This document shows, piece after piece, positions 24,243 to 49,681 of a stretch of 64,000 nucleotides of DNA. Source of the stretch: Actinomycetota bacterium (GTDB lineage Bacteria > Actinomycetota > Acidimicrobiia > Spongiisociales > ZC4RG35); assembly GCA_052390035.1 (NCBI GenBank), contig JBQTHI010000044.1, forward strand, positions 6,797 to 70,796, given 5' to 3'. The translations under genes and the position numbers were made by a program. A model generated the notes under the pieces. The model worked only from the letters and a program-made list of their open reading frames with translations, did no database searches and had not been told where the DNA came from. Every line of letters starts with the position of its first letter. Within the stretch, counting starts at the first letter, position 1.

Positions 24243-24854
24243 GTGACCGAAAGCGTGCTCACCGTCGGCACAGAGGCCCTGGAGATGATCATCGGCCTCC
24301 GCGATCAGGAACCCTCGGACGAGGGGGAGATCGGGCTGCTGGTTGAAATAACCGGCCTCCACCACGGCCAATTCAGCTATGACCTGGCTTTTGTACCTGT
24401 TCAGGACGCCGGCCGCGATCACCACATTGAGCGCCACGGAGAGTTGACGGTGATCATTCCGAATGAGAGCGTCGGAAACCTCACCGGTGCCAGCGTCAAA
24501 CTCAACGACGAAGGCCTGACGATCGACAACCCCAACTCGCCGAGCCCCGCCATGGCTGCCCACAAGGGCAGCCTGGAGGGTCCCCTGGCCGACCAGATCA
24601 CCCAGGTTCTCCATGAAGATGTGAACCCCAAGATCGCCATGCACGGCGGTCGGGCGGAGTTGGTTTCGGTGGATGGCACCGTCGCCTATCTGAAGATGGG
24701 CGGTGGCTGCCAGGGATGTGGCATGGCACAGGTAACGCTCAAACAAGGCATCGAGCGGATCCTGATGGAGTCGATTCCCGAAATCACCGAGGTCATCGAT
24801 GTCACCGACCACGCCTCGGGTACAGATCCTTATTACCAGCGATCGAAGAAGTAG
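24243..24854 (+). CDS. nfuA: Fe-S cluster carrier NfuA-like (degenerate A-type carrier domain fused to Nfu domain)
   Basis: The C-terminal Nfu domain has the GGGCQGCGMA CxxC motif. The start is GTG 24243 or, better spaced from the GGAGGG RBS, GTG 24255. Confidence 0.65.
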   Translation: MTESVLTVGTEALEMIIGLRDQEPSDEGEIGLLVEITGLHHGQFSYDLAFVPVQDAGRDHHIERHGELTVIIPNESVGNLTGASVKLNDEGLTIDNPNSPSPAMAAHKGSLEGPLADQITQVLHEDVNPKIAMHGGRAELVSVDGTVAYLKMGGGCQGCGMAQVTLKQGIERILMESIPEITEVIDVTDHASGTDPYYQRSKK

Positions 24855-24897
24855 CGCCGAACGGAGTCCCCGGGGACAGGCGGATAGCCTGATCAGG

Positions 24898-27030
24898 ATG
24901 GAACCTGTCCGCCGATGGCGGCGTCTGAGTCGTATGCGTCGCATGGTGTTGTTGGCCGCCGTCTCTCTCCTGACCCTGGCGGCTATTCCGTTGGCACAGG
25001 CCCAGGTAGCGCAGGCCCAACCTCCGGTTCGGATGGAGGCCAAGGTCGGGTTGGCCGGTTATGTGCAGATACAGCGGCCGGTGGAAGTGGCGGTAACCAT
25101 CGAAGCCGACGTTCTCTTTGCCGGATGGCTCGAGGCCAGGACCGGCGACACGGTGGTCAGGGTGGCGGTCGAAGTTCCCGCCGGGGGAGCGAAGACTTAC
25201 GACCTCCGCCTTCCGCCGCCGGTCGGTTCGGTATCGACCCGACTGCGCCTCTTTGATAGGAACGGCTCGGGTCGAGATGGTTCAGGCCCCCTGGCAACCA
25301 CCAACCTTCAGCTCAGAACCGTCGACGGTGAGACCCTGGTGGCAGTGGTGGGGCGGGACGAGCTCGTCAAGACCATCGACAGCGCCGAGGTGGCAGTCAC
25401 TGGTGACCCAGTCGTGGCCGCCGCCATCGACTTGGCTCGCCTCGAGACTGGAGTGGAGCCCGCCAACTATCTGGTGTTAGATCAGCCAGGTGAACTCCCC
25501 GAACCGGTGGTGTTGTGGCTCGACCGAGGAGGACGACTGGTCATCGATCGCCAAGACTCGGGTTCTTTGGGGCTGGCGTTCGGTCGGGTAATTCCTGATG
25601 GCGAGAGGTCCCTCTTGTCATACGGACAAGGCTGGGTGATTGCCGTCCCCGACATCGGCGCACTTGATGTGGTCGGGTGGTCCCAGGTGCTGGTGCCGAC
25701 TCCGATCCAGCTGGCACCCCGCGATGTCTGGCAAAGCCCTGAGCTCCAATTGATGCAGTCGGCAACGAGCGGCGGCGACCAGCGGGTCCCCTCGTTGCCG
25801 TGGTTGCTCGGTGCTCTGGTTGGCTACGCCATCCTGGTCGGCCCCGTCAACTTCCTGATCTTGCGGCGCCTCGGTCGTCGAGAGCTGGCCTGGGTCACGG
25901 TCCCGGCTCTGTCGCTCTTGGCTGTGGTCGGGTTTTGGCTGGCGGGACGTCAGCGGCTCGAGGAGACGATCATCAATCATGCGAGCCTCGTCATATCCGC
26001 CCCGGACCGGAGCGAAGGTCGGACCGCCCTGGTATTAGCGACCGGCTCCGGGGGCGAACGAACGGTGGCCGTACCCGCTGACTGGGAGGCCTACCCGGCG
26101 TCGGTGACGATCGATGGAGGCATGCCGGTGGCATCGGCGTTGGCTGAGTCCGTTGCTCCGGGCGAATTCCGATTCACGCTTGAACAACTCGGATCGGCCG
26201 GCGTGCAGAGTTGGTGGCAGAGCGCAGCGTTTGACCTTCCTCAAGTCCTGCCCTCCGCCTCGGACAATCGGCTAAAGATCGACGTCAACAACCAAACGCC
26301 CCATGAATTTTGGGCATGGGGACTGGTGGGCCGGGGACGGGTCACGGTCGCCCCCCAGGCCCTGGCGCCCGGTGAGGCGGGTGGCGTGTCGGTGTTACCC
26401 GGTCAAAGTGGCGCCAACGAGTTCGGGTCGGTCGGCGACGCCGTCATCAATAGCCGCAATTTGTGGAACGACCCGTTCATTTGGAACAAACTTGGTGCTC
26501 TCTCCTACGCGGCTTCCTCGCTCCTAGCCCAATACGACAGCTACTTCTTCGGTTACACCGACCAGATGTCGGTTTCCGTGATTGTCGATGGGCGCGAGGT
26601 AAAGGCGCCCGGGTCGACTCTCGTGCTGATACCGGTCGACGCCGGCGCCATCTTCGGCTCCCAGGCAGGCAGCGTCACCGCCCACTTAATCAGCACCGGT
26701 GACGCCAGTTGGGTCGACATCGGACCCGGTTATCTGTCGGTTTCAACCCAGCAGATGACTATCGGTTGGGAGGTGCCCCAGGACATTGCGACCGACCCCA
26801 CCCTGGCCGTGTCAAACATGTTCGGCGAGATCCCGCGAGTGCTCGAGGCTTACAATTGGGACGCCGACGCTTATGAGGAGGTCCTCGGGGGCCAGTCCCT
26901 CGACCTCGGCTTGTACCGAAGCCCAGTCGGCCAGGTGCTGGTACGGGCCAGCGCCGGCGACGGCGACGTTGAGGGCCAGTTCATCGAGCAGGCTATGTCA
27001 CCCTACGGCTTCAGTCTGGTCTGGCCGTGA
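24898..27030 (+). CDS. large exported/membrane protein of unknown function (first gene of ABC-2/MoxR operon)
   Basis: ATG 24898 gives a signal peptide (MEPVRRWRRLSRMRRMVLLAAVSLLTLAAIPLAQA). There are two predicted internal TM helices. The stop overlaps the next start (GTGA). Confidence 0.5.
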   Translation: MEPVRRWRRLSRMRRMVLLAAVSLLTLAAIPLAQAQVAQAQPPVRMEAKVGLAGYVQIQRPVEVAVTIEADVLFAGWLEARTGDTVVRVAVEVPAGGAKTYDLRLPPPVGSVSTRLRLFDRNGSGRDGSGPLATTNLQLRTVDGETLVAVVGRDELVKTIDSAEVAVTGDPVVAAAIDLARLETGVEPANYLVLDQPGELPEPVVLWLDRGGRLVIDRQDSGSLGLAFGRVIPDGERSLLSYGQGWVIAVPDIGALDVVGWSQVLVPTPIQLAPRDVWQSPELQLMQSATSGGDQRVPSLPWLLGALVGYAILVGPVNFLILRRLGRRELAWVTVPALSLLAVVGFWLAGRQRLEETIINHASLVISAPDRSEGRTALVLATGSGGERTVAVPADWEAYPASVTIDGGMPVASALAESVAPGEFRFTLEQLGSAGVQSWWQSAAFDLPQVLPSASDNRLKIDVNNQTPHEFWAWGLVGRGRVTVAPQALAPGEAGGVSVLPGQSGANEFGSVGDAVINSRNLWNDPFIWNKLGALSYAASSLLAQYDSYFFGYTDQMSVSVIVDGREVKAPGSTLVLIPVDAGAIFGSQAGSVTAHLISTGDASWVDIGPGYLSVSTQQMTIGWEVPQDIATDPTLAVSNMFGEIPRVLEAYNWDADAYEEVLGGQSLDLGLYRSPVGQVLVRASAGDGDVEGQFIEQAMSPYGFSLVWP

Positions 27031-40664: not shown

Positions 40665-41216
40665 GTGGAAATTTCAGAGGAGTTCGAGGTGGCTCGGACC
40701 GTCGCGGCGGTATGGGACATCTTTCAGGACGTACCGGCGGTCGCTCAATGCCTCCCCGGTGCAACCCTCACCGAGGACAAAGGTGGCAATGTCTACGCCG
40801 GCAATGTTTCGGTCAAACTCGGGCCGATAGCCACCACCTTCGAAGGAGAGGCGGTCATCACGCCCGATGAGGCCAGCCGCCGGGCTTTGATAGATGGCAA
40901 GGGGGTTGATCGGCGCGGCGGTAGCCGAGGGCAGGTGAAGGTCACCTATGTGTTGACCCCCACCGACGGCGGAGGGACGAAGGTGGCGATCCGCGCGGAC
41001 GTCACCATCGCCGGGCCGGCGGCACAGTTCGGACGCACCGGTCTCATACAGGAGATGAGCCGGCGGCTAATCGCCGACTTTGTGAGCTGTCTGGAGGCCA
41101 AACTGGCGGCACCGACTGAGGACGCGGCCGCGGCCATCAAAGCCGAACTCAGGCCTCTGCGGCTCTTTTGGGCAAGTCTGCTGGCCTGGTTGAAGAGGCT
41201 CTTCGCCCGCAGATGA
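40665..41216 (+). CDS. coxG: CoxG-like SRPBCC protein (carbon monoxide dehydrogenase subunit G family)
   Basis: GTG 40665 follows a GGAGG RBS. The fold is SRPBCC/CoxG. The stop overlaps the next start (ATGA). Confidence 0.65.
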   Translation: MEISEEFEVARTVAAVWDIFQDVPAVAQCLPGATLTEDKGGNVYAGNVSVKLGPIATTFEGEAVITPDEASRRALIDGKGVDRRGGSRGQVKVTYVLTPTDGGGTKVAIRADVTIAGPAAQFGRTGLIQEMSRRLIADFVSCLEAKLAAPTEDAAAAIKAELRPLRLFWASLLAWLKRLFARR

Positions 41217-43186
41217 GGTCGCTCTTCGGCTGGCTGAGCGGCCATTGGCCGCCCCGCAGTTCGGTGTTGACTCTGCTCTTGTTGATGGCGGCCTGCGCCG
41301 GCGTGGGTGAACCGCCGCCCGAGTCGGCGGGCAATCGAACGGTCGTCGAGATGTTCGACAACACGTTCTCCTCATCAGAGATCCATATAAAGGTTGGGTC
41401 CGAACTGAGCTTCGTGGGTGCCGGGCGCAACCCACACAACGCGGTGGCGTCAGACGGCTCGTGGACGACCGAGTCGGTGTTTGGCTCCCTTGAGCAGCTG
41501 GCCGGGGAGGAGGCGGTCCTTTCCTTTGAGCGCCCTGGCGAATACGTGTTCTTTTGCACCTTTCATGGGACGGCCGAAGGGGTCGGGATGGCGGCCCGGC
41601 TGGTGGTCGGAGATGCCGGCGCTTCGCCCGCCGCCCAAGGGGTGTCTGATACCAAGGCTCCCGCCCAATGGTCGGGCAACACGCTTCGGGTGCCGGAAGA
41701 CCAGCCGACGATCCAGCAAGCCGTTGACATGGCACTACCAGGCGACCTGGTCCTCATCGGGGCCGGGCTATATCAAGAGGCGATCGAAGTGAACACGCCC
41801 GGTCTGGTCATCCGGGGAGTCGACCGCAATCGGGTAGTGATCGACGCCGGTAATCGAGCCGAGAACGTGATCGATGTCTACAGCGACGGAGTAGCCGTTG
41901 AGAACCTCACCGTCAAAAACGGCATCGCCAACGGCGTCTACTGGGGAGCGGTGAGAGGATACCGGGCTTCGTATGTCACCGCCATCGACAACGGCGACTA
42001 CGGAATTTACGCGTTCGACTCGTCGGATGGGCTCTTCGAATATTCCTACGCCTCGGGTTCACCCGACTCGGGTTTCTATATCGGCCAGTGCGATCCTTGC
42101 CAAGCGGTGATTGATCACGTCGTCTCCGAATGGAATGGGTTGGGCTACTCGGGCACCAATGCCTCCGGTGAGCTTTACATCATCAACAGCGTCTGGCGCT
42201 ACAACGCCGCCGGCATCGTCCCCAACACCCTCGACTCCGAGCTCCTCCCCCCGTTTCACGACGTCACCATCGCCGGGAATGTCATCCACGACAACAGCAA
42301 CCGGAAGGCTCCCGTCAAGTCTGCTCCGTGGTCGGGTTTGGGCAACGGGATCATTCTCGCCGGAGGAAACAGCTCGACCGTGATTCGCAATCTGGTCTTC
42401 AACCATGAGGTCAACGGGATCGCCGTCACTCCCAACCTCGATCGCAACTTCTGGCGGAGCGCCCACAACCGGATCGAAGGCAACGTCGTCGAGGGTTCGG
42501 GCCGCGCCGACCTGGCCCTCGCCGGGCCGGCCGGGCCAGGCAACTGCTTCACCGGGAATCGGGCGACATCTTCCTTCCCGGTAGGTCTTCAGGCTTTCGC
42601 CACCTGCGACGGGGTGCGGCTGCCCGTCCTCTATGAACTGGCCGGGTCGACCGAACAGCTTGGCCGCGTCATGGAGAACGGTCTCGGGCTTCGACCGGAT
42701 AATCCGGTTGGATCCGCCCCCAAGCCCGGACCTCAGGAGAACATGCCGGGCGGGGCCGATGCGCCGGTGAACCCGGCAGTAGACGTTTTCGAAAGCCATC
42801 CGGTAGATCTGGGGGGGATTGTGGTCCCGGAGATGCCCGAAAGACTCACCATCGACCAACCGAAAGGAATCACGGTGTTCGGGATGTTGCTTGGCTCGGT
42901 GACGTCGGTGTTCTTCGGCCTCTATGCCTACTTCTTGCCGTTTGTCCTCTGTGCGGCGTGGGTCACCATCGCCCTCTGGGACCTAGCAAGAAGTGGCCGC
43001 CGGCCAGCCGCCGCCATCGCATGGTCGGCGGCGATCCTTCTGATCCCCTTCGTCGGGGTGATCCTCTATTACATCCTGGGCCGCTCCGCCATCCCTCGAT
43101 GGCAGCGGACGGTGCTGCTCGCCGGCGGTATCGGGGCGTACTTGGTGATCCTCGCCGTTGGAGCTCTCATCGGTGGCGTCGTCTAG
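41213..43186 (+). CDS. lipoprotein with N-terminal cupredoxin domain, NosD-like right-handed parallel beta-helix (CASH) repeats and C-terminal double-TM anchor
   Basis: The lipobox is LLMAAC. Type-1 Cu ligand spacing is H...C-x2-H-x7-M (NPHNAV...FFCTFHGTAEGVGM). Repeated NGI/NxV beta-helix units resemble NosD. Two C-terminal TM helices are present. Confidence 0.65.
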   Translation: MRSLFGWLSGHWPPRSSVLTLLLLMAACAGVGEPPPESAGNRTVVEMFDNTFSSSEIHIKVGSELSFVGAGRNPHNAVASDGSWTTESVFGSLEQLAGEEAVLSFERPGEYVFFCTFHGTAEGVGMAARLVVGDAGASPAAQGVSDTKAPAQWSGNTLRVPEDQPTIQQAVDMALPGDLVLIGAGLYQEAIEVNTPGLVIRGVDRNRVVIDAGNRAENVIDVYSDGVAVENLTVKNGIANGVYWGAVRGYRASYVTAIDNGDYGIYAFDSSDGLFEYSYASGSPDSGFYIGQCDPCQAVIDHVVSEWNGLGYSGTNASGELYIINSVWRYNAAGIVPNTLDSELLPPFHDVTIAGNVIHDNSNRKAPVKSAPWSGLGNGIILAGGNSSTVIRNLVFNHEVNGIAVTPNLDRNFWRSAHNRIEGNVVEGSGRADLALAGPAGPGNCFTGNRATSSFPVGLQAFATCDGVRLPVLYELAGSTEQLGRVMENGLGLRPDNPVGSAPKPGPQENMPGGADAPVNPAVDVFESHPVDLGGIVVPEMPERLTIDQPKGITVFGMLLGSVTSVFFGLYAYFLPFVLCAAWVTIALWDLARSGRRPAAAIAWSAAILLIPFVGVILYYILGRSAIPRWQRTVLLAGGIGAYLVILAVGALIGGVV

Positions 43187-43210: not shown

Positions 43211-44425
43211 GTGTTGGCGAAGACCCAAATCAAGGCCCAGGCGAAGCTGGCAATAGAACCGGCGGAAGCCTTTCGCATGTTCACGAACTCGACCGCGGTG
43301 AGGGAGTGGCTGGCTGATGCCGCCATAATCGCCCCCAAACCGGGGGGGAGGGTGTTTCTCGGCTGGAACGACGGTTATCAGACGGCCGGGAACTTCAACC
43401 GATGGAATCCCCCGACGGCGCTCGGTTTCAGCTGGCGTGGGCCGGATGAGAAGCAGACCATCGTCAAAGTTGGCTTCGAAGCTGCCCCCGATGGCGGCAC
43501 TCTGGTTCGGGTCCGTCACACTGGCTTCGCCACCGGCAAGAGAGGAAGGTCGACCCGGCGGGCGCTGCAGTCGGCGTGGGAACGATCGCTCGAGAACCTG
43601 GCGTCCGTCGTGGGGAGCGGAGAAGATCTCCGGTTTACTCGCCGGCCGATGCTCGGGGTATTCGTCGATGACGTCGTGCGGGGAGACGGTGGCCGATCCA
43701 TTGGAGTCCGCCTGGGTGGGGTGGTCGAGGGAATGGGTGCAGCCGGTGCCGGTCTTCGCGGGGGCGATGTTGTCACCGCTCTGGGCGGAACGAAGATCGG
43801 TTCGTTCTCCGATCTGACGGCGGCCCTCACCCCTCATCGGGCCGGTGACACGGTCGAGGTGGCCTTGCTCCGCGACGGTCAGGACCAGCGGGTCGCCATG
43901 ACGCTTTCGGGTCGTCCAATTGGCGATCTCAAGACAACCGCTTCCGACTTGACTGCCCAGGTGGCGGATATGTCTCGACATTTCGGCGACTCCCTCGATG
44001 AAGTGCTGGCGGGGGTCACCAACGAAGAAGCCGAGTTTCGGCCCGGTGCGGGGGAGTGGTCGGTCAAAGAGGTGATGGCTCATCTGATCGACGGCGAGGG
44101 AGATCAGCACTCCTACCTGGCTGAGGCCTTCGAAGGTGGCGAGCGATATCACGACCTGGTTCTCGGCAACTCGCACTGGCGGACGGCGGTCACCGCGGCG
44201 TCTTACCCGGACCCGGCGACGATGCTGGCAAGCTACCGACGGTTGATGGCGCAGACCGTTGAGCTGCTGCGGGCAATGCCGGAGGATCTGGAGCACCGGC
44301 GAGGGACCTTTTGGCGCTTCGCCTTCGGCTTCGCCGACGGCGAATCGCATCACAACCAGCATGTCGATCAGATTCGAGCCGCGCTCGAGGCCGCCCGCAG
44401 GGGATCTAACCCTGAACAGGGGTAG
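43211..44425 (+). CDS. three-domain fusion: SRPBCC (AHSA1-like) - PDZ - DinB/YfiT-like
   Basis: The N-terminus is an Aha1-like SRPBCC fold. The mid-section is PDZ-like (GVRLGGVVEGMGAAGAGLRGGDVVTALGG). The C-terminal DinB_2-like His motifs are HLIDGE...HHNQH. Confidence 0.55.
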   Translation: MLAKTQIKAQAKLAIEPAEAFRMFTNSTAVREWLADAAIIAPKPGGRVFLGWNDGYQTAGNFNRWNPPTALGFSWRGPDEKQTIVKVGFEAAPDGGTLVRVRHTGFATGKRGRSTRRALQSAWERSLENLASVVGSGEDLRFTRRPMLGVFVDDVVRGDGGRSIGVRLGGVVEGMGAAGAGLRGGDVVTALGGTKIGSFSDLTAALTPHRAGDTVEVALLRDGQDQRVAMTLSGRPIGDLKTTASDLTAQVADMSRHFGDSLDEVLAGVTNEEAEFRPGAGEWSVKEVMAHLIDGEGDQHSYLAEAFEGGERYHDLVLGNSHWRTAVTAASYPDPATMLASYRRLMAQTVELLRAMPEDLEHRRGTFWRFAFGFADGESHHNQHVDQIRAALEAARRGSNPEQG

Positions 44426-45209
44426 TGGGGCGAGGATCCGGGAGGGGGGCCGGTTTGCGCCTCATCGCCGGATGAGGCAGCGGTCTGGGTCGCTCGAGCT
44501 GGGTGACGAGGAGCTTGTACACTTTTGGCCCGATCATCTCGGTCAGCTCCTCTCGCAGCGCCCGGTAAACCGGCTCACCCCCGACAAAGGCGAGCGGGCT
44601 GTCGGTGCACCACCAGGAGAACTCGTCGCCACCATCCCCCCAGTCGCGGCGTTTCCATTCGCGGACGGTGGCCGTCGTATGACCGGCGCCGTCGCTCTCC
44701 TCCTCGAGGCGTAGCGGCAGCTGCCAGCAAACGTTGGGTTTCCAATCCAGGGGTCGCTCACCAGCCTGGAGGGCACCGAGGTGGAGAGCGCAGCCGGCTC
44801 CGGCGGCAAAACCCGGCCGGTTGAGGAATATGCAAGCGTCGTCGACCAGGCGGCTCGTCGTTTCTTCTCCTCGCTTGCGCCACACCCGCTCACCGGCCTT
44901 TTTGCGGAACTGCCAGTTGGTGTCGTCCAGACGTTGTGCATGTGCTTCAACCCGGGCAACATCTTGCTCGTCGGTGAACCATGCCCCCATCGAACAGCAG
45001 CCCTGCTGGAGCTCGGGTGTCGGCGTTGTGTAGATCCCCAGACACCCCCGGCCGAATATGCACATCCAAGATGAACGGAGGAATGTGGCGTCGAACATCC
45101 ATGTTTTGTTCCGATCGGGATCACTGAATGAGATGAAGTCATGAACGTCGGCGGGGGACCGCATGCGAGGAAGATCGTAGGCCCGACGCGCCACGCAACT
45201 GGTGGCCAA
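44406..45209 (-). CDS. hypothetical Cys-rich protein
   Basis: 267 aa with 9 Cys in short-spaced groups (CIFGRGC, GCCSMG, DDACIF, GCALH), which suggests a metal or Fe-S site. It lies immediately downstream of the HD-GYP gene on the same strand. Confidence 0.4.
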   Translation of the reverse strand: MATSCVARRAYDLPRMRSPADVHDFISFSDPDRNKTWMFDATFLRSSWMCIFGRGCLGIYTTPTPELQQGCCSMGAWFTDEQDVARVEAHAQRLDDTNWQFRKKAGERVWRKRGEETTSRLVDDACIFLNRPGFAAGAGCALHLGALQAGERPLDWKPNVCWQLPLRLEEESDGAGHTTATVREWKRRDWGDGGDEFSWWCTDSPLAFVGGEPVYRALREELTEMIGPKVYKLLVTQLERPRPLPHPAMRRKPAPLPDPRPTTPVQG

Positions 45210-45220
45210 TGAGCATGGGC

Positions 45221-46870
45221 CTAGTTGACGGTGACCGACACCACCGCCGTGTCACATGCCCCGTCGACGTCACAAACCTGATATGTGAAATTGACCATTC
45301 CGGAGAAGTTGGGAGGGGCGGAATAACGGATTCGGCCGTTACCGAAGACGACCGCCGATCCGACCGAGGGGGCATCCACAATTGACAGCGAGCTAGCGAC
45401 GATTGGCCCCGAGTCGTTTGCCAATACGCCGATGTTGACCTTCTCGTTCGGTCGGGTGAAGGCTGAGTCGTCCAAGGCCGCCAGTGTGCCGGGGATGGTG
45501 GTGGTCGTGGTGGTGGTGGTGGTGGGCAGGGTCGTGGTGGTGGTGGTGGTGGTCGTTGAGGTGAGGGGTCCGCTGGTGGTCGTGGTGGGCCCCGCCGGGA
45601 GCGTCGTGCTTGCGCTGGTAGTGGTGGATGAGGTCGGCGTTGGCGTCGCCGGTCCCGAGCCGGTCGGTACTTCCGAGAGCCCCGTTCCTCCCGGCCTCCC
45701 GCCCGCACTCGCCGTGGGTTGTCCCTCGGCGAGTTGTTCGATTCGGGCGCGGACCGGTTGGTGGACGAGGTCAATTGCCGGGAGGAGGTTGGCGGAGCCG
45801 GCGGTGGCGGTGATGAGGCCGGCGGCGATCACCGTCGCCACATCGCGACCGAGGACCTCCAATGGACGGAGCAGAGGAAGATCGGCGAGGGCGGCCAGCG
45901 GTCCGGTCGACCACCGCAACCGCCCGAGGGCGATGTTCATGAGGGCGCGGACGACTCGTGGGTCGAATTGTGCGCCGGCGTGGCGGGCCACTTCGGCGCG
46001 AGCATCGGCGTGACTCATCTTGGTTTTGTACGAACGGCCGGTGACCATCACGTCATAGGCATCGGCCACCGCAACGATGCGGGCTCCAAGGGCAATGTCT
46101 TCGCCGGCAAGGCCGTGGGGGTAGCCGGAGCCGTCCCACCTTTCGTGGTGATGTTCGATGGTGGTCGCCCACGGTCCGAGCCAGCCCACGATCGGAGCGA
46201 TGAGGCGCATCCCCTCGAGGGGATGGCGATGAATCTGCTTCCACTCCTCGGCGTCGAGGGAGGATGGCTTGTTGAGGATCTCGGCCGGCACCTCCAGCTT
46301 GCCGATGTCGTGAAGTAAAGCTGCCCAGCGCAGTCGATCGCGAGCCTCGTCTCCGAGTCTCATCTCCTCCGCCAGCAGATCGGTGTAGGCGCGGGTTCTC
46401 TCCGAGTGTCCCCGGGTCCGACGGTCGTGCTGGGAGAGGGAGGCGGCGAGAGTGAGGATCAGCTCGGCGGCTTCGGCGATGTCCTGCTTACCAGCGGCGG
46501 TGGCCGCCTCCAGTCGAGCCCGAAGCTGGTTGACGCCGCCGGCGCGATGGGCGACACGGTAGCGGGGGGGAGCCTTGTCGGGAAACGCCAAGGTCAGCTT
46601 CAAAAGGGCGGACAGCGGTATGAGGCGCCTGGTGAACGTTTCGGTGATGTGGGCGGCGAGGCCGGCCGTGGCGATGACCACCGTCCACCACAGCACGATG
46701 GCCATCGGCTCCTGGGGCGATTCCATGAGGCTCGCCGCGACACCACCGGCGAAATACCCGGCGACGATCGGGATGGCAAACGCCGCCAGCCGCACCACCG
46801 TGGCGATTCCCCGACGAGAGCGCCATTGGTGGGCGGATCGCTCCTTTGACCGCGGCCTACGACCCTTCAC
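45221..46870 (-). CDS. membrane HD-GYP phosphodiesterase with C-terminal Thr/Pro-rich linker and Ig-like (VCBS/cadherin-like) domain
   Basis: The start is GTG. Two N-terminal TM helices precede the HD (HDIGK) and GYP (HHERWDGSGYPHGL) motifs. A third hydrophobic helix follows, then a poly-Thr linker and the C-terminal NFTYQVCDVDGACDTAVVSVTV motif. Confidence 0.7.
   Translation of the reverse strand: MKGRRPRSKERSAHQWRSRRGIATVVRLAAFAIPIVAGYFAGGVAASLMESPQEPMAIVLWWTVVIATAGLAAHITETFTRRLIPLSALLKLTLAFPDKAPPRYRVAHRAGGVNQLRARLEAATAAGKQDIAEAAELILTLAASLSQHDRRTRGHSERTRAYTDLLAEEMRLGDEARDRLRWAALLHDIGKLEVPAEILNKPSSLDAEEWKQIHRHPLEGMRLIAPIVGWLGPWATTIEHHHERWDGSGYPHGLAGEDIALGARIVAVADAYDVMVTGRSYKTKMSHADARAEVARHAGAQFDPRVVRALMNIALGRLRWSTGPLAALADLPLLRPLEVLGRDVATVIAAGLITATAGSANLLPAIDLVHQPVRARIEQLAEGQPTASAGGRPGGTGLSEVPTGSGPATPTPTSSTTTSASTTLPAGPTTTTSGPLTSTTTTTTTTTLPTTTTTTTTTIPGTLAALDDSAFTRPNEKVNIGVLANDSGPIVASSLSIVDAPSVGSAVVFGNGRIRYSAPPNFSGMVNFTYQVCDVDGACDTAVVSVTVN
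45495..45640. repeat. (GGT/ACC)n-rich trinucleotide repeat tract encoding the poly-Thr linker
   Basis: The plus strand reads ggtggtggtcgtggtggtggtggtgg... Confidence 0.7.
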
Positions 46871-46896
46871 CTCAGGGGAGTTATCGGGCGTTTGCT

Positions 46897-46916
46897 GGTA
46901 GCTGTTGAGCGCTACC
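46897..46916 (-). terminator. hairpin downstream of aceE
   Basis: GGTAGC-tgttgagc-GCTACC lies about 30 nt past the aceE stop. There is no U-tract. Confidence 0.25.
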
Positions 46917-46948
46917 CCGTCGGCCAGTCGAGTCGTCAGGCCGAGTCG

Positions 46949-49681
46949 TTAGGGCCCGGTAAGTGGGTTCATGGCCTCCGGGTCGACGTCGTAGCGGGCG
47001 ATGGCGTCGTCAACTGCTTCGTGCCCAATCCGCCCTTCGCGGACCAGCGCCGCCAATGTCGCCACGATCACATGGCCGGAGTCGGTTTCGAAGAACCGTC
47101 TTAGCCTGGTCCGGCTGTCCGAGCGGCCAAACCCGTCGGTGCCGAGGATGGTAAACGAGCGGGGAATGAATCTTCCGACCTGGTCGGGGACCGCCTTCAT
47201 GAAATCGCTCACTGCGACGATGGGCCCCTCCGTTCCGGCGAGGGCCGAAGTCACGAAAGGGGTGCGGGTCGGCTCGCCGGGATGAAGCCGGTTCCATCGC
47301 TCCACTTCAAGTGCCTCGTTCCTCAGTTTTTGGTAAGAGGTAACCGACCACAGCTCGGCGCCCACCCGGTAATGGTCGGCCAGGTCGACTTGCGCCTTGC
47401 GGGCCGCCAGATTGGCCGTGCCTGAGAAGAGGATGGTGGCCCGTGCAGCGACGCCCGCCGGAGCCGGGCTCCACCGGTAAAGGCCACCGATGATTCCCTC
47501 TGGGGAACCGTCGGGTCGCGCCGGTTGTGGATAGGTCTCGTTGTAGAGGGTGATGTAAAAGAAGCGGTCTTCCGGTTCTGACCCGTACATCCGATAGATG
47601 CCGTGTTCGATGATCGTCCCCACCTCATAAGCGAACGCCGGGTCATAGCTCTCGCAGGCCGGGTTGGTGCTTGCCAGCAGCAAGCTGTGCCCGTCCTGGT
47701 GCTGAAGACCCTCGCCGGCGAGGGTCGTGCGGCCGGCGGTAGCGCCCAACAAGAATCCGCGTGCTCGGGCGTCCCCAGCTCCCCACAGGAGGTCGCCGAT
47801 CCGTTGAAACCCGAACATGGAATAGAGAATGAAGAACGGCACCATCGGGACGCCGCGTGTGGCGTATGAGGTAGCCGCCGCGATCCAGCTTGCCATCGAG
47901 CCGGCCTCGGTTATTCCCTCCTCCAGGATCTGTCCGTCTTGCGCCTCGACATAAGAAAGAAGCAGCTTCGCATCGACCGGCTCGTAAAGTTGGCCCTCGG
48001 AGGCATAGATCTTCAGCTCGCGGAACAGTGCATCCATGCCGAAGGTGCGTGCCTCGTCGGGCACAATTGGGACTACCCGTGGTCCAAAACCCTCGGTGCG
48101 GGCCAGGTTCCGAAGCAGACGAGTGAAGGCGGTGGTGGTAGACGCCTCAGCTTTGCCGGATCCGGCATATATCTCGGCGAATGCTTCCGGCCCAGGCAGG
48201 GTCAACGTCGAACGCACCGTCGTTACTCGGGCGGGAAGGTACCCGTTGAGCACCTTGCGTCGTTCATGCAGATATTGGTGCTCCGGGGAACCTTCCATGG
48301 GACGGAGATATGGGGGGTCGGCGTCGCCTTCCAGCGCCTCGTCGGGGATGTCCTCTTGAAGACTCAGACGATCACGGAGCACCTTGAGTTGGGCATTGGT
48401 GAGTTCTTTGATTTGATGGGTGGCGTTACGTCCCTCGACATCAGGGCCCAGTGTCCATCCCTTTATCGTCTTGGCCAGGATGACGACGGGGGCGCCGGTC
48501 AGTTCTGTTGCGAGTTGGTAAGAGCTGAAGATCTTCTTGTAGTCCAGCCCTCCTCGGCGTAGGGCCCATATCTCGTCATCGGACATGCCCGTCACGAGAG
48601 CAAGGGCCCTCGGGTCCTTGCCAAAAAAACGTTCGCGGACAAAGGCACCGTTCTCGGCCTTGTATCTCTGATATTCACCGTCAAGCGTCTCGTTCATCAC
48701 CTGGACTAGGGCGCCTTCATGATCGGCGGCGAGCAGCGGATCCCAGCCGCTCCCCCAGATGGTCTTGATGACGTGCCATCCGGCTCCCCTGAACACCGAC
48801 TCCAACTCCTGGATGATCTTCCCGTTTCCTCGTACCGGCCCGTCGAGGCGTTGGAGGTTGCAGTTGATCACCCAGATGAGGTTGTCGAGCTTCTCCCTGC
48901 TGGCAAGATGGATCGAGCCAAGGGTCTCCGGCTCGTCCACCTCCCCATCGCCGACAAAACACCAAATCTTTGACTCGGAGGTGTCATCGAGCCCGCGATG
49001 GTGGAGGTAACGGTTGAAACGGGCGTGATAGATCGAGTTGATGGGCCCGAGCCCCATCGAAACGGTCGGGAATTCCCAGAACTCCGGCATGAGCCGCGGG
49101 TGGGGATATGACGAGAGGCCGTGTCCTCCGATCTCGAATCGAAAGTGATCGAGGTGTTCTTCATCCAGCCTGCCTTCGAGAAACGCCCTCGCATAAATCC
49201 CCGGAGCGGCGTGGCCCTGGAAATATATGTGGTCACCGGGACTCCCATTGGCCTTGCCCCGGAAGAAATGGTTGAAACCGACCTCGTACAGGGTTGCCGT
49301 CGAGGCGAAGGTGGACAGGTGTCCGCCGATTCCCTTCTCCCGGTGATTGGCCTTGATCACCATGACCGCCGCGTTCCATCGAATGAAGCGGCGGATTCTC
49401 CGCTCCAGATGCTCGTCTCCGGGGAAAGGGGGCTCGTCTTCCGGCGGGATGGTGTTGACGTACGGGGTGGTGGTGGTAGGCGGTACGCCGATGTTGGCGA
49501 GATGGGCGCGTTCTAGTAGGCGGGCGAGCAGAAAACGCGCCCGGACCGGTCCGTGCAAGGAAACGACCTGATCGAGGGAGTCGAGCCATTCCTGGGTCTC
49601 GGTCGGGTCGGCGTCGTAGAGCTGGTCGATGAAGTCGTCGCCGAGCGTTCTGGCGACCTGACCCGGATCAGCTTCTCTCAC
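46949..49681 (-). CDS. aceE: pyruvate dehydrogenase E1 component (homodimeric AceE type)
   Basis: 910 aa. The AceE N-terminus LDSLDQVV...ARFLLARLLERA, the TPP-binding region and the transketolase-like domains are present. Confidence 0.9.
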   Translation of the reverse strand: MREADPGQVARTLGDDFIDQLYDADPTETQEWLDSLDQVVSLHGPVRARFLLARLLERAHLANIGVPPTTTTPYVNTIPPEDEPPFPGDEHLERRIRRFIRWNAAVMVIKANHREKGIGGHLSTFASTATLYEVGFNHFFRGKANGSPGDHIYFQGHAAPGIYARAFLEGRLDEEHLDHFRFEIGGHGLSSYPHPRLMPEFWEFPTVSMGLGPINSIYHARFNRYLHHRGLDDTSESKIWCFVGDGEVDEPETLGSIHLASREKLDNLIWVINCNLQRLDGPVRGNGKIIQELESVFRGAGWHVIKTIWGSGWDPLLAADHEGALVQVMNETLDGEYQRYKAENGAFVRERFFGKDPRALALVTGMSDDEIWALRRGGLDYKKIFSSYQLATELTGAPVVILAKTIKGWTLGPDVEGRNATHQIKELTNAQLKVLRDRLSLQEDIPDEALEGDADPPYLRPMEGSPEHQYLHERRKVLNGYLPARVTTVRSTLTLPGPEAFAEIYAGSGKAEASTTTAFTRLLRNLARTEGFGPRVVPIVPDEARTFGMDALFRELKIYASEGQLYEPVDAKLLLSYVEAQDGQILEEGITEAGSMASWIAAATSYATRGVPMVPFFILYSMFGFQRIGDLLWGAGDARARGFLLGATAGRTTLAGEGLQHQDGHSLLLASTNPACESYDPAFAYEVGTIIEHGIYRMYGSEPEDRFFYITLYNETYPQPARPDGSPEGIIGGLYRWSPAPAGVAARATILFSGTANLAARKAQVDLADHYRVGAELWSVTSYQKLRNEALEVERWNRLHPGEPTRTPFVTSALAGTEGPIVAVSDFMKAVPDQVGRFIPRSFTILGTDGFGRSDSRTRLRRFFETDSGHVIVATLAALVREGRIGHEAVDDAIARYDVDPEAMNPLTGP

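Follow-up and report, generated by a model that had tools for sequence, protein, structure and literature searches.

An HD-GYP protein with a C-terminal Ig-like tail and a family of relatives sharing its predicted membrane layout

Enzymes of cyclic di-GMP (c-di-GMP) metabolism follow a textbook order in which an N-terminal sensor drives a C-terminal output domain. We analysed a stretch of 64,000 nucleotides from an Acidimicrobiia bacterium (assembly GCA_052390035.1, contig JBQTHI010000044.1, positions 6,797 to 70,796), called the window below, which encodes an HD-GYP protein of 549 amino acids (aa) with the reverse arrangement. Two N-terminal transmembrane (TM) helices and the catalytic domain are followed by a third apolar segment, a Thr-rich stalk and an Ig-like domain. 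As predicted from sequence, this back-to-front layout is common to more than 1,000 related proteins, as yet uncharacterised, of Gram-positive bacteria from soil and water. The best explanation as a whole, which we favour by a modest degree, is a three-pass membrane phosphodiesterase whose stalked Ig domain stands outside the cell and acts by tethering or clustering.

The characterised HD-GYP phosphodiesterases PA4781 from Pseudomonas aeruginosa, PmGH from Persephonella marina and V-cGAP3 from Vibrio cholerae, are like the window protein in catalytic sequence and fold, including the HD and HHExxDGxGYP motifs, the His and Asp ligands and the RxYK motif. Each is either soluble or has REC, GAF or further domains at the N-terminus, and none shows what is predicted for the window protein, a TM helix after the catalytic domain and a C-terminal module outside the cell. 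Actinobacterial membrane HD-GYP proteins are known from Streptomyces, namely HdgA and HdgB. These contain a multi-pass N-terminal MASE9 domain (‘6TM-HD-GYP’) and lack a C-terminal TM helix or ectodomain. With two N-terminal TM helices, the window protein falls short of the six to eight that define MASE9.

A comparable order of parts is found outside c-di-GMP signalling. The actinobacterial receptor Ser/Thr kinases PknB, with PASTA domains, and PknD, with a beta-propeller, consist of a cytoplasmic catalytic domain, a TM helix and a variable C-terminal ectodomain, and their signalling is thought to operate by ligand-driven localisation or dimerisation over flexible linkers. The window family shares this logic and has ectodomains of comparable diversity, among them beta-propellers and Ig-like repeats. 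It differs in its HD-GYP instead of kinase output and in the additional N-terminal TM hairpin, and the analogy is one of mechanism only.

Extracytoplasmic modules do occur with HD-GYP domains. The HD-GYP census (Galperin & Chou) names dCache, PBPb and CHASE2 as such partners and states that experimental characterisation is lacking for every HD-GYP protein with an extracytoplasmic sensor. Like the window protein, the dCache-, CHASE2- and PBPb-HD-GYP receptors listed there join an outside module to a cytoplasmic HD-GYP domain, and outside events are expected to control hydrolysis. Their sensor is N-terminal, inserted between two TM helices and connected through continuous helices. In the window protein, by contrast, the module is C-terminal, is reached through a predicted third TM segment and a disordered stalk, and has an Ig-like, adhesin-type fold rather than a small-molecule-binding one. 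A prediction made earlier from the DNA letters of the window (the original prediction) had stated that N-terminal sensors are normal for c-di-GMP enzymes, in agreement with the census. DvhD from Desulfovibrio vulgaris, a functional analogue of LapD, is another membrane HD-GYP protein of similar fold that ties c-di-GMP to the cell surface. It is built as periplasmic dCache, TM, PAS and HD-GYP, binds nucleotide as a receptor and passes the signal inside-out to a protease.

In the searchable literature, no account was found of an HD-GYP protein that ends in a TM helix and an ectodomain. The parts are known; the architecture as a class appears undescribed. The proteins themselves already stand in public databases, named only generically, and the pairing of HD_5 with Big_9 can be read from automated domain tables. 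The window product is identical (100% over 100% of its length) to a protein from a metagenome-assembled genome at NCBI, ‘HD domain-containing phosphohydrolase [Actinomycetota bacterium]’, which is encoded on a contig of 114 kb.

Layout, membrane topology and spread of the family

The gene and its parts are listed here in window coordinates, with Kyte–Doolittle hydropathy (KD) and the per-residue confidence (pLDDT) of the AlphaFold2 model.

45221..46870, − strand: whole HD-GYP gene from the list of open reading frames (ORFs); 549 aa, GTG start, TAG stop
46808..46870, − strand: basic N-terminal segment, aa 1-21, predicted cytoplasmic by the positive-inside rule (9 Lys/Arg)
46727..46807, − strand: predicted TM helix 1, aa 22-48 (KD up to 1.89; AlphaFold2 helix 20-48, pLDDT >90)
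46646..46708, − strand: predicted TM helix 2, aa 55-75 (KD 1.89; AlphaFold2 helix 55-81)
46544..46630, − strand: family-specific juxtamembrane motif, aa 81-109, RRLIPLSALLKLTLAFPDKAPPRYRVAH; R81, P85, F96, P97, P101 and R103 invariant
45953..46441, − strand: HD-GYP catalytic domain, aa 144-306 (Pfam HD_5, E 1.2e-37; alignments to 5z7c, 4r8z and 4mcw; Foldseek TM-score 0.77 to PA4781)
45773..45841, − strand: third predicted membrane-spanning segment, aa 344-366, with a conserved GRD just before it (KD 1.51; AlphaFold2 helix 334-359, pLDDT 54-61)
45479..45772, − strand: disordered stalk, aa 367-464 (pLDDT <50 almost throughout)
45494..45673, − strand: Thr/Ser/Pro-rich core of the stalk, aa 400-459 (78% Thr/Ser/Pro, 32 Thr)
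45230..45478, − strand: Big_9 Ig-like beta-sandwich, aa 465-547 (Pfam Big_9, E 1.5e-14; seven strands in AlphaFold2, pLDDT >93)
45254..45274, − strand: Cys533 and Cys539, the sole cysteines of the 549-aa protein, both at least 90% conserved in relatives

The original prediction had described two N-terminal TM helices, an HD-GYP domain, a third apolar segment, about 60 aa of Thr, Ser and Pro, and a C-terminal Ig-like domain. Hydropathy, AlphaFold2 and Pfam HD_5 recover the first three, the Thr/Ser/Pro stretch lies at aa 400-459, and a hidden Markov model search assigns the tail to Big_9 (PF17963) with 55.1 bits against a cut-off of 23.6, in line with its beta-sandwich fold. The Pfam Cadherin_5 and NCBIfam tandem-95 repeat models scored below their cut-offs on the 549-aa protein. 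In fold, the domain matches Ig-like domains found in the adhesins FrhA, Rib and SraP. Its cysteines C533 and C539 lie on either side of a hairpin and would form a probable disulfide. The AlphaFold2 model, built on an alignment of 57 sequences, is confident for the HD-GYP core, falls below a pLDDT of 50 across almost all of aa 360-459 and places the beta-sandwich at aa 465-548.

In the N-terminal part, TM helices 1 and 2 are separated by an acidic loop of six residues (ESPQEP), and two Arg residues stand right after helix 2. P34 in helix 1 and W61 and W62 in helix 2 are invariant among relatives. The juxtamembrane consensus RRLxPL...FPDxAPxR is invariant family-wide, and despite this conservation AlphaFold2 confidence is low over aa 94-108. 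FPDKAPPR (aa 96-103, 46562..46585), always conserved as FPDxAPxR, is yet modelled with a pLDDT of about 47; the motif may be a docking or latch element. The poly-Thr part of the stalk has a period-3 array as its coding sequence (45496..45588), with about 30 copies of TGG on the + strand, which correspond to in-frame ACC Thr codons on the − strand. The length of this array could change by slippage.

The N-terminus and the HD-GYP domain are placed in the cytoplasm because of the 9 Lys/Arg in the first 21 residues, the acidic loop and the two Arg after helix 2. We considered helix 1 as a cleaved signal peptide, which would put the HD-GYP domain outside. This was rejected, as a second conserved TM helix follows after only six residues and a metal-dependent nucleotide hydrolase needs a cytoplasmic substrate. 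The location of the tail depends on whether the third segment spans the membrane. Its apolar stretch VATVIAAGLITATAGSANLL (aa 344-363) has a KD of 1.51, which is marginal alone, and its modelling is of middling confidence. Both points weigh against an outside tail. In a control on 33 long ORFs of the window, 22 have no comparable apolar charge-free run; three apparently soluble ones do have one, which also weighs against it. Given this marginal segment and these soluble ORFs, the topology argument is carried by evidence from the family.

At family level the segment is regular. Among 114 full-length close relatives it is a charge-free run with a median of 24 aa, located at a constant distance of about 97 aa past the GYP motif and preceded by the conserved GRD. 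The 15-residue flanks of these 114 segments hold on average 2.0 Lys plus Arg before and 0.64 after. The segment, which overall stands about 97-99 aa past GYP, is also found in 85 of 97 full-length representatives of clusters at 50% identity, and in nearly all of 80 loci from GTDB genomes. The modules that follow it are exclusively of extracellular type in the 61 family members surveyed (Big_9 in 17, Cadherin_5 in 13, Cadherin_4 in 11 and fn3 in 4, also Big_13), with FG-GAP, Kelch, CBM_2 and CshA repeats as single cases. Tail composition is low in Lys and high in Thr, Pro and Asp.

An even number of cysteines is a hallmark known for exported, disulfide-bonded proteins of Actinobacteria. The tails of all 115 close relatives contain an even number (2, 4, 6 or 8), while the cytoplasmic part is almost free of cysteine. 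For diverse representatives, 60 of 64 cysteine-containing tails are even, and the cytoplasmic parts show no parity bias. The binomial probability of the latter count is about 4e-14, a value that is indicative only; both counts come from related, hence not independent, sequences, which reduces their weight for an outside tail.

A third segment that stays out of the membrane, leaving the Thr-rich region and the Ig-like domain in the cytoplasm, is the competing topology. It would suit the marginal hydrophobicity of the window segment (a crude summed Hessa-scale value is about +3.4), its moderate AlphaFold2 confidence, and the existence of Ala/Gly/Thr-rich apolar runs in some apparently soluble high-GC proteins. 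It does not account for the positive-inside asymmetry and conserved charge-free length, for tail domains that include CBM_2, FG-GAP and adhesin repeats, for the even-cysteine rule or for the Lys-poor, Thr/Pro-rich composition, and we regard it as very unlikely. Every topology indicator examined, from charge asymmetry and charge-free run to tail modules and cysteine parity, points outside, as the original prediction had proposed. The stalk and Ig-like tail thus very probably lie outside the cell, and a three-pass topology with an extracytoplasmic C-terminus is strongly suggested.

The layout is not a peculiarity of one gene. With few exceptions, the 120 best database matches (418-869 aa) pair HD_5 with Big_9, often with additional cadherin-like domains, and wherever the source names an organism for these matches it belongs to Acidimicrobiia. 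For a wider search we used the N-terminal 135 residues alone as query. This part contains the TM hairpin and juxtamembrane motif and leaves out the HD-GYP core, since HD_5 begins only at aa 144. Among 1.84 billion cluster representatives it recovered 1,343 clusters (50% identity) at E <= 1e-3, mostly from Actinomycetota and Dormibacterota, and 458 at the stricter threshold of E <= 1e-10. Family proteins reach 2,051 aa, and their tails past the third segment range from 51 to 1,679 aa. A scan of GTDB genomes with the single window protein gave no confirmed relative; the 80 GTDB loci were obtained by scanning with an alignment of the family-specific juxtamembrane region. They come from Acidimicrobiia, other Actinomycetota (Acidothermaceae, Aquipuribacter, Gaiellales, Frankiaceae) and Dormibacterota.

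Domain content and conservation are therefore those of a family with a fixed layout of two TM helices, HD-GYP, TM helix and variable ectodomain, of which the Big_9 version is the Acidimicrobiia form. The original prediction would have had to be given up if topology indicators had placed the tail in the cytoplasm, or if all orthologs lacked the tail. Neither is the case: best matches, GTDB loci and the tail-domain survey agree that the tail is kept, which speaks against a recent lineage-specific insertion.

Catalytic residues and the substrate

The defining motifs of an HD-GYP domain are complete. H187-D188 form the HD motif, and H241-H242-E243-R-W-D246-G-S-G249-Y250-P251 form HHExxDGxGYP; both are invariant in relatives. 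The remaining ligands of the two-metal site, H189, H250 and D305 in PmGH, correspond to H155, H216 and D270 by alignment to 4mcw (residue numbers corrected for a tag of six residues), and none of the three varies within the family. These residues, together with K201-P-S and R279-S-Y-K282, align to PmGH (4mcw), PA4781 (4r8z) and V-cGAP3 (5z7c). The residues present match those that the census lists as defining (Galperin & Chou). With all core catalytic residues in place, the window protein is likely an active cyclic-dinucleotide phosphodiesterase.

One acidic residue is lacking. The third-metal ligand E185 of PmGH, which divides trinuclear from binuclear HD-GYP subfamilies, aligns to R151. This counts against the enzyme reading, although the residue is not required for HD-GYP membership. 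With the nearly invariant D149 two residues before it, a third metal is still possible. The exchange of Glu185 for Arg151, together with bimetallic PA4781 as best fold match (Foldseek TM-score 0.77), makes a binuclear site likely. In many, though not all, HD-GYP enzymes, hydrolysis at a binuclear site stops at pGpG.

For the substrate, the RxY[K/R] motif is informative. In the window protein it reads R279-S-Y-K282 (codons 46025..46036), which is the c-di-GMP type. Because of this RSYK motif c-di-GMP is the most likely substrate, a reading we hold with fair but not high confidence. Lys at this position also dominates the wider family, in 71 of 96 representatives and 49 of 67 GTDB loci.

Several observations weigh against c-di-GMP. 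RxYQ is found instead in 114 of the 120 closest Acidimicrobiia relatives, and the change from RxYK to RxYQ is reported in the census to shift specificity towards 3'3'-cyclic GMP-AMP (cGAMP). The best sequence match in the PDB is V-cGAP3, which is cGAMP-specific. Where KPG is expected the window protein reads K201-P-S, with main-chain contacts kept, and its clade reads KPS or KD[GS]. In a motif scan of the 64-kb window for GGDEF, EAL and PilZ, the only hit was a chance ‘GGDEF’ string inside the Cys-rich protein encoded downstream. At 6 of the 80 GTDB loci, confirmed GGDEF or GGDEF-EAL genes are located no more than 6 kb away from the family gene; this speaks for c-di-GMP, but the count is only modestly above a rough expectation of about three. 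A Pfam search of ten other large ORFs of the window gave no c-di-GMP gene and no protein O-mannosyltransferase (Pmt).

These points would be explained if the true substrate were 3'3'-cGAMP or another cyclic or linear dinucleotide, with layout and topology unchanged. Against this stand the RSYK motif of the window protein, the prevalence of Lys in the wider family and the GGDEF and EAL genes beside family members at six loci; moreover, the specificity determinants are not absolute, as the census states. For the window protein we consider such a substrate rather unlikely. As a live alternative cGAMP would concern particularly the Q-type relatives. The search for GGDEF/EAL partners that the original prediction had called for gave a divided answer, with none in the window and some within 6 kb at relatives' loci.

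At two loci, one from Actinomycetota and one from Dormibacterota, a GGDEF gene is located immediately downstream of the family member: CHASE3-PAS-GGDEF (L027:7565-9394, + strand) and GAF-GGDEF-EAL (L029:7780-9789, − strand). A further stop-free ORF (L041:2649-4913, + strand) contains GGDEF at aa 156-287, followed by the family N-terminal module and HD-GYP (HD_5 at aa 464-622). This is a fusion protein, or else two genes sharing one frame, and the contig stops short of the tail.

Neighbouring genes

The HD-GYP gene is flanked on its own strand by the following genes.

46949..49681, − strand: upstream neighbour, pyruvate dehydrogenase E1 (AceE-type), an ORF ending 78 nt (46871..46948) before the HD-GYP gene
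44406..45164, − strand: downstream neighbour, Cys-rich protein of 252 aa by NCBI annotation, probably a distant member of the DUF3109/Rv0495c family (mechanical ORF 44406..45209, 267 aa from TTG)

The original prediction had given the downstream protein as 267 aa, 11 nt from the HD-GYP gene and with nine clustered cysteines. An ORF of this extent exists. The NCBI annotation and the homologs (236-291 aa, most of them 240-260) place the start at an internal ATG (45164), 45 nt further in. The gene probably starts there, which results in 252 aa, a gap of 56 nt and eight cysteines rather than nine. The eight cysteines and H128 are invariant in 120 homologs, and the cysteines are spread over aa 35-186 rather than clustered. 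The search for a cysteine motif or DUF led to DUF3109 (PF11307) by way of the relatives: 35 of 47 close homologs match (best E 7.6e-07), while the protein itself, with 20.2 bits, remains under the cut-off of 33.5. Precomputed tables list PF11307 for the exact protein. It would thus be a distant DUF3109 member or belong to a sister family. Current Pfam names this family after Rv0495c of Mycobacterium tuberculosis, whose deletion leads to an oxidised cytosol.

The AlphaFold2 model of the Cys-rich protein has a pLDDT of 75 and dips at the Cys-bearing loops, as would be expected for a metal or Fe-S site that is not modelled. A Foldseek search of the PDB with this model gave no match (best E 0.75). 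The protein probably binds a metal or cluster, is redox-linked and is unrelated to the HD-GYP protein. As an operon partner, as which it had been put forward, the Cys-rich gene was dropped. It follows the HD-GYP gene at one of 83 related loci, namely that of the nearest GTDB relative, so the pair is not a conserved operon, and homologs occur without an HD-GYP gene: one of 77% identity stands directly after E1 gene fragments with no HD-GYP gene between, and a more distant one between alaS and typA. In the window both genes are read from the − strand, and a scan of 44200..47100 on both strands detected neither a promoter nor a terminator-like site, so co-transcription of the two genes, or of E1 with them, is possible. 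The 3' end of the Cys-rich gene overlaps by 20 nt (44406..44425) with that of a convergent gene for an AHSA1-PDZ-DinB fusion protein (43211..44425, + strand).

E1 is located directly upstream, on the same strand, of the HD-GYP-Big_9 gene at eight distinct Acidimicrobiia loci (L003/L004, L005, L006, L008, L009, L012, L014 and L018). At L003, two tandem HD-GYP-Ig paralogs follow E1. When the neighbour ORFs at the 80 GTDB loci were clustered, no family-wide partner emerged; all that recurred was antisense shadows and housekeeping synteny within clades (E1, LigD/Ku, PIG-L, DUF5319). The lack of a conserved partner gene counts against the reading we favour. One clade of the wider family is flanked by LigD and Ku of non-homologous end joining (L021:1531-4314, L052:5763-7091 and about eight more loci), probably as clade-level synteny with no functional link.

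The annotated neighbours in the window are E1, the DUF3109-like protein, the AHSA1-PDZ-DinB protein and a cupredoxin/NosD protein. The last, of 672 aa (41168..43186, + strand), joins a cupredoxin domain and a NosD-like beta-helix to a PLDc_N membrane module at its C-terminus. A gene of the same type stands near the Cys-rich gene in a relative (L087:6026-7951), alongside XdhC/CoxI, COXG and MoCF genes. At this locus E1 is called as two adjacent pieces (L087:2993-4995), one of 342 aa with no Pfam match and one of 298 aa with PDH_E1_M and Transketolase_C_1, and a frameshift, pseudogene or error of assembly may lie behind the split. A 754-aa ORF of the window (24766..27027, + strand) has three long apolar charge-free runs and no Pfam match at E <= 1e-5. 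No LapG/DvhG-type protease and no giant adhesin gene was found among annotated or recurrent neighbours.

Coupling across the membrane and its meaning

In the arrangement we propose, the N-terminus would be cytoplasmic, and TM helices 1 and 2 would form a hairpin with a six-residue loop outside. The HD-GYP domain would be held in the cytoplasm between helix 2 and the third helix (aa 344-366), which would bring the chain back outside. A stalk of about 100 disordered residues would then carry the disulfide-stapled Big_9 domain at or near the cell surface. Its contour length is estimated at roughly 35 nm, enough to cross a Gram-positive wall. The stalk is a likely O-glycosylation target, and precedents in Actinobacteria lead one to expect O-mannosylation of such a Thr-rich segment.

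No rigid conformational change can be passed on through a disordered stalk, so that tethering, clustering or tension would have to act instead. We hypothesise that outside-to-inside coupling occurs when the ectodomain binds a ligand on the wall, the matrix or a neighbouring cell, by which the protein would be localised or dimerised. This would alter how active the HD-GYP domain is, which depends on dimers, or would produce a local sink for the messenger. As HD-GYP domains act as dimers, ectodomain-driven localisation or dimerisation would be the most economical mechanism. The surface-contact or polysaccharide sensing suggested in the original prediction is plausible as a hypothesis.

The same parts could serve a simpler purpose. 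If the tail were purely an adhesin or anchor, the protein would be a constitutive phosphodiesterase pinned to wall or matrix, or a surface protein with an independent enzyme. The disordered stalk is compatible with this, and so are the tails, which are hypervariable, resemble adhesins (cadherin-like, CshA repeats, fn3) and extend up to about 1,680 aa. The fold matches are adhesin Ig domains, and no Cache, CHASE or PBP sensor fold was found in any tail of the 61 members surveyed. A passive anchor would, however, hardly demand the observed conservation of the TM hairpin (P34, W61-W62), the juxtamembrane motif and the GRD-TM3 junction, which is far above such a need, and a catalytic domain held by the membrane at both ends suggests that the helices control its geometry. 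We consider a pure anchor possible but somewhat unlikely.

Signalling could also run inside-out as in LapD and DvhD, with the HD-GYP domain as a c-di-GMP receptor that alters presentation or binding of the outside Ig domain. DvhD is a precedent for a membrane HD-GYP protein as c-di-GMP-dependent inside-out switch, and its HD-GYP domain is among the best fold matches. The window protein departs from the LapD/DvhD pattern, as its catalytic residues are all intact and conserved, its outside domain is C-terminal behind a disordered stalk of 100 aa instead of an N-terminal dCache on continuous helices, and no operon with protease or adhesin was seen among annotated and recurrent neighbours. This makes inside-out signalling very unlikely, and the stalked phosphodiesterase that acts by tethering or clustering is the reading we prefer.

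The individual domains are ordinary and the case rests on sequence-based inference. More speculatively, the family might represent a large undescribed class of ‘receptor-type’ cyclic-dinucleotide phosphodiesterases in monoderms (Actinomycetota, Dormibacterota) with at least 1,343 clusters, a tentative proposal that we rate below the mechanism for the window protein. Here the HD-GYP domain would be clamped by the TM hairpin and the C-terminal TM helix and linked by a wall-spanning, glycosylated stalk to a diversifying adhesin-like ectodomain, and contact would cluster or pull the protein and so switch messenger hydrolysis. If true, such a class would provide a direct mechanical or contact input to c-di-GMP signalling, reversed with respect to every described c-di-GMP enzyme. 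The split between Lys and Gln at the specificity motif inside one clade offers a natural test of the proposed determinant of c-di-GMP versus cGAMP. A widespread family with an outside C-terminal module of adhesin-type domains on a wall-spanning stalk would widen the known wiring of c-di-GMP signalling. It would offer a candidate for coupling surface or cell-cell contact to second-messenger levels in Gram-positive environmental bacteria, with the greatest relevance for Acidimicrobiia, a barely studied group that is abundant in both soil and water.

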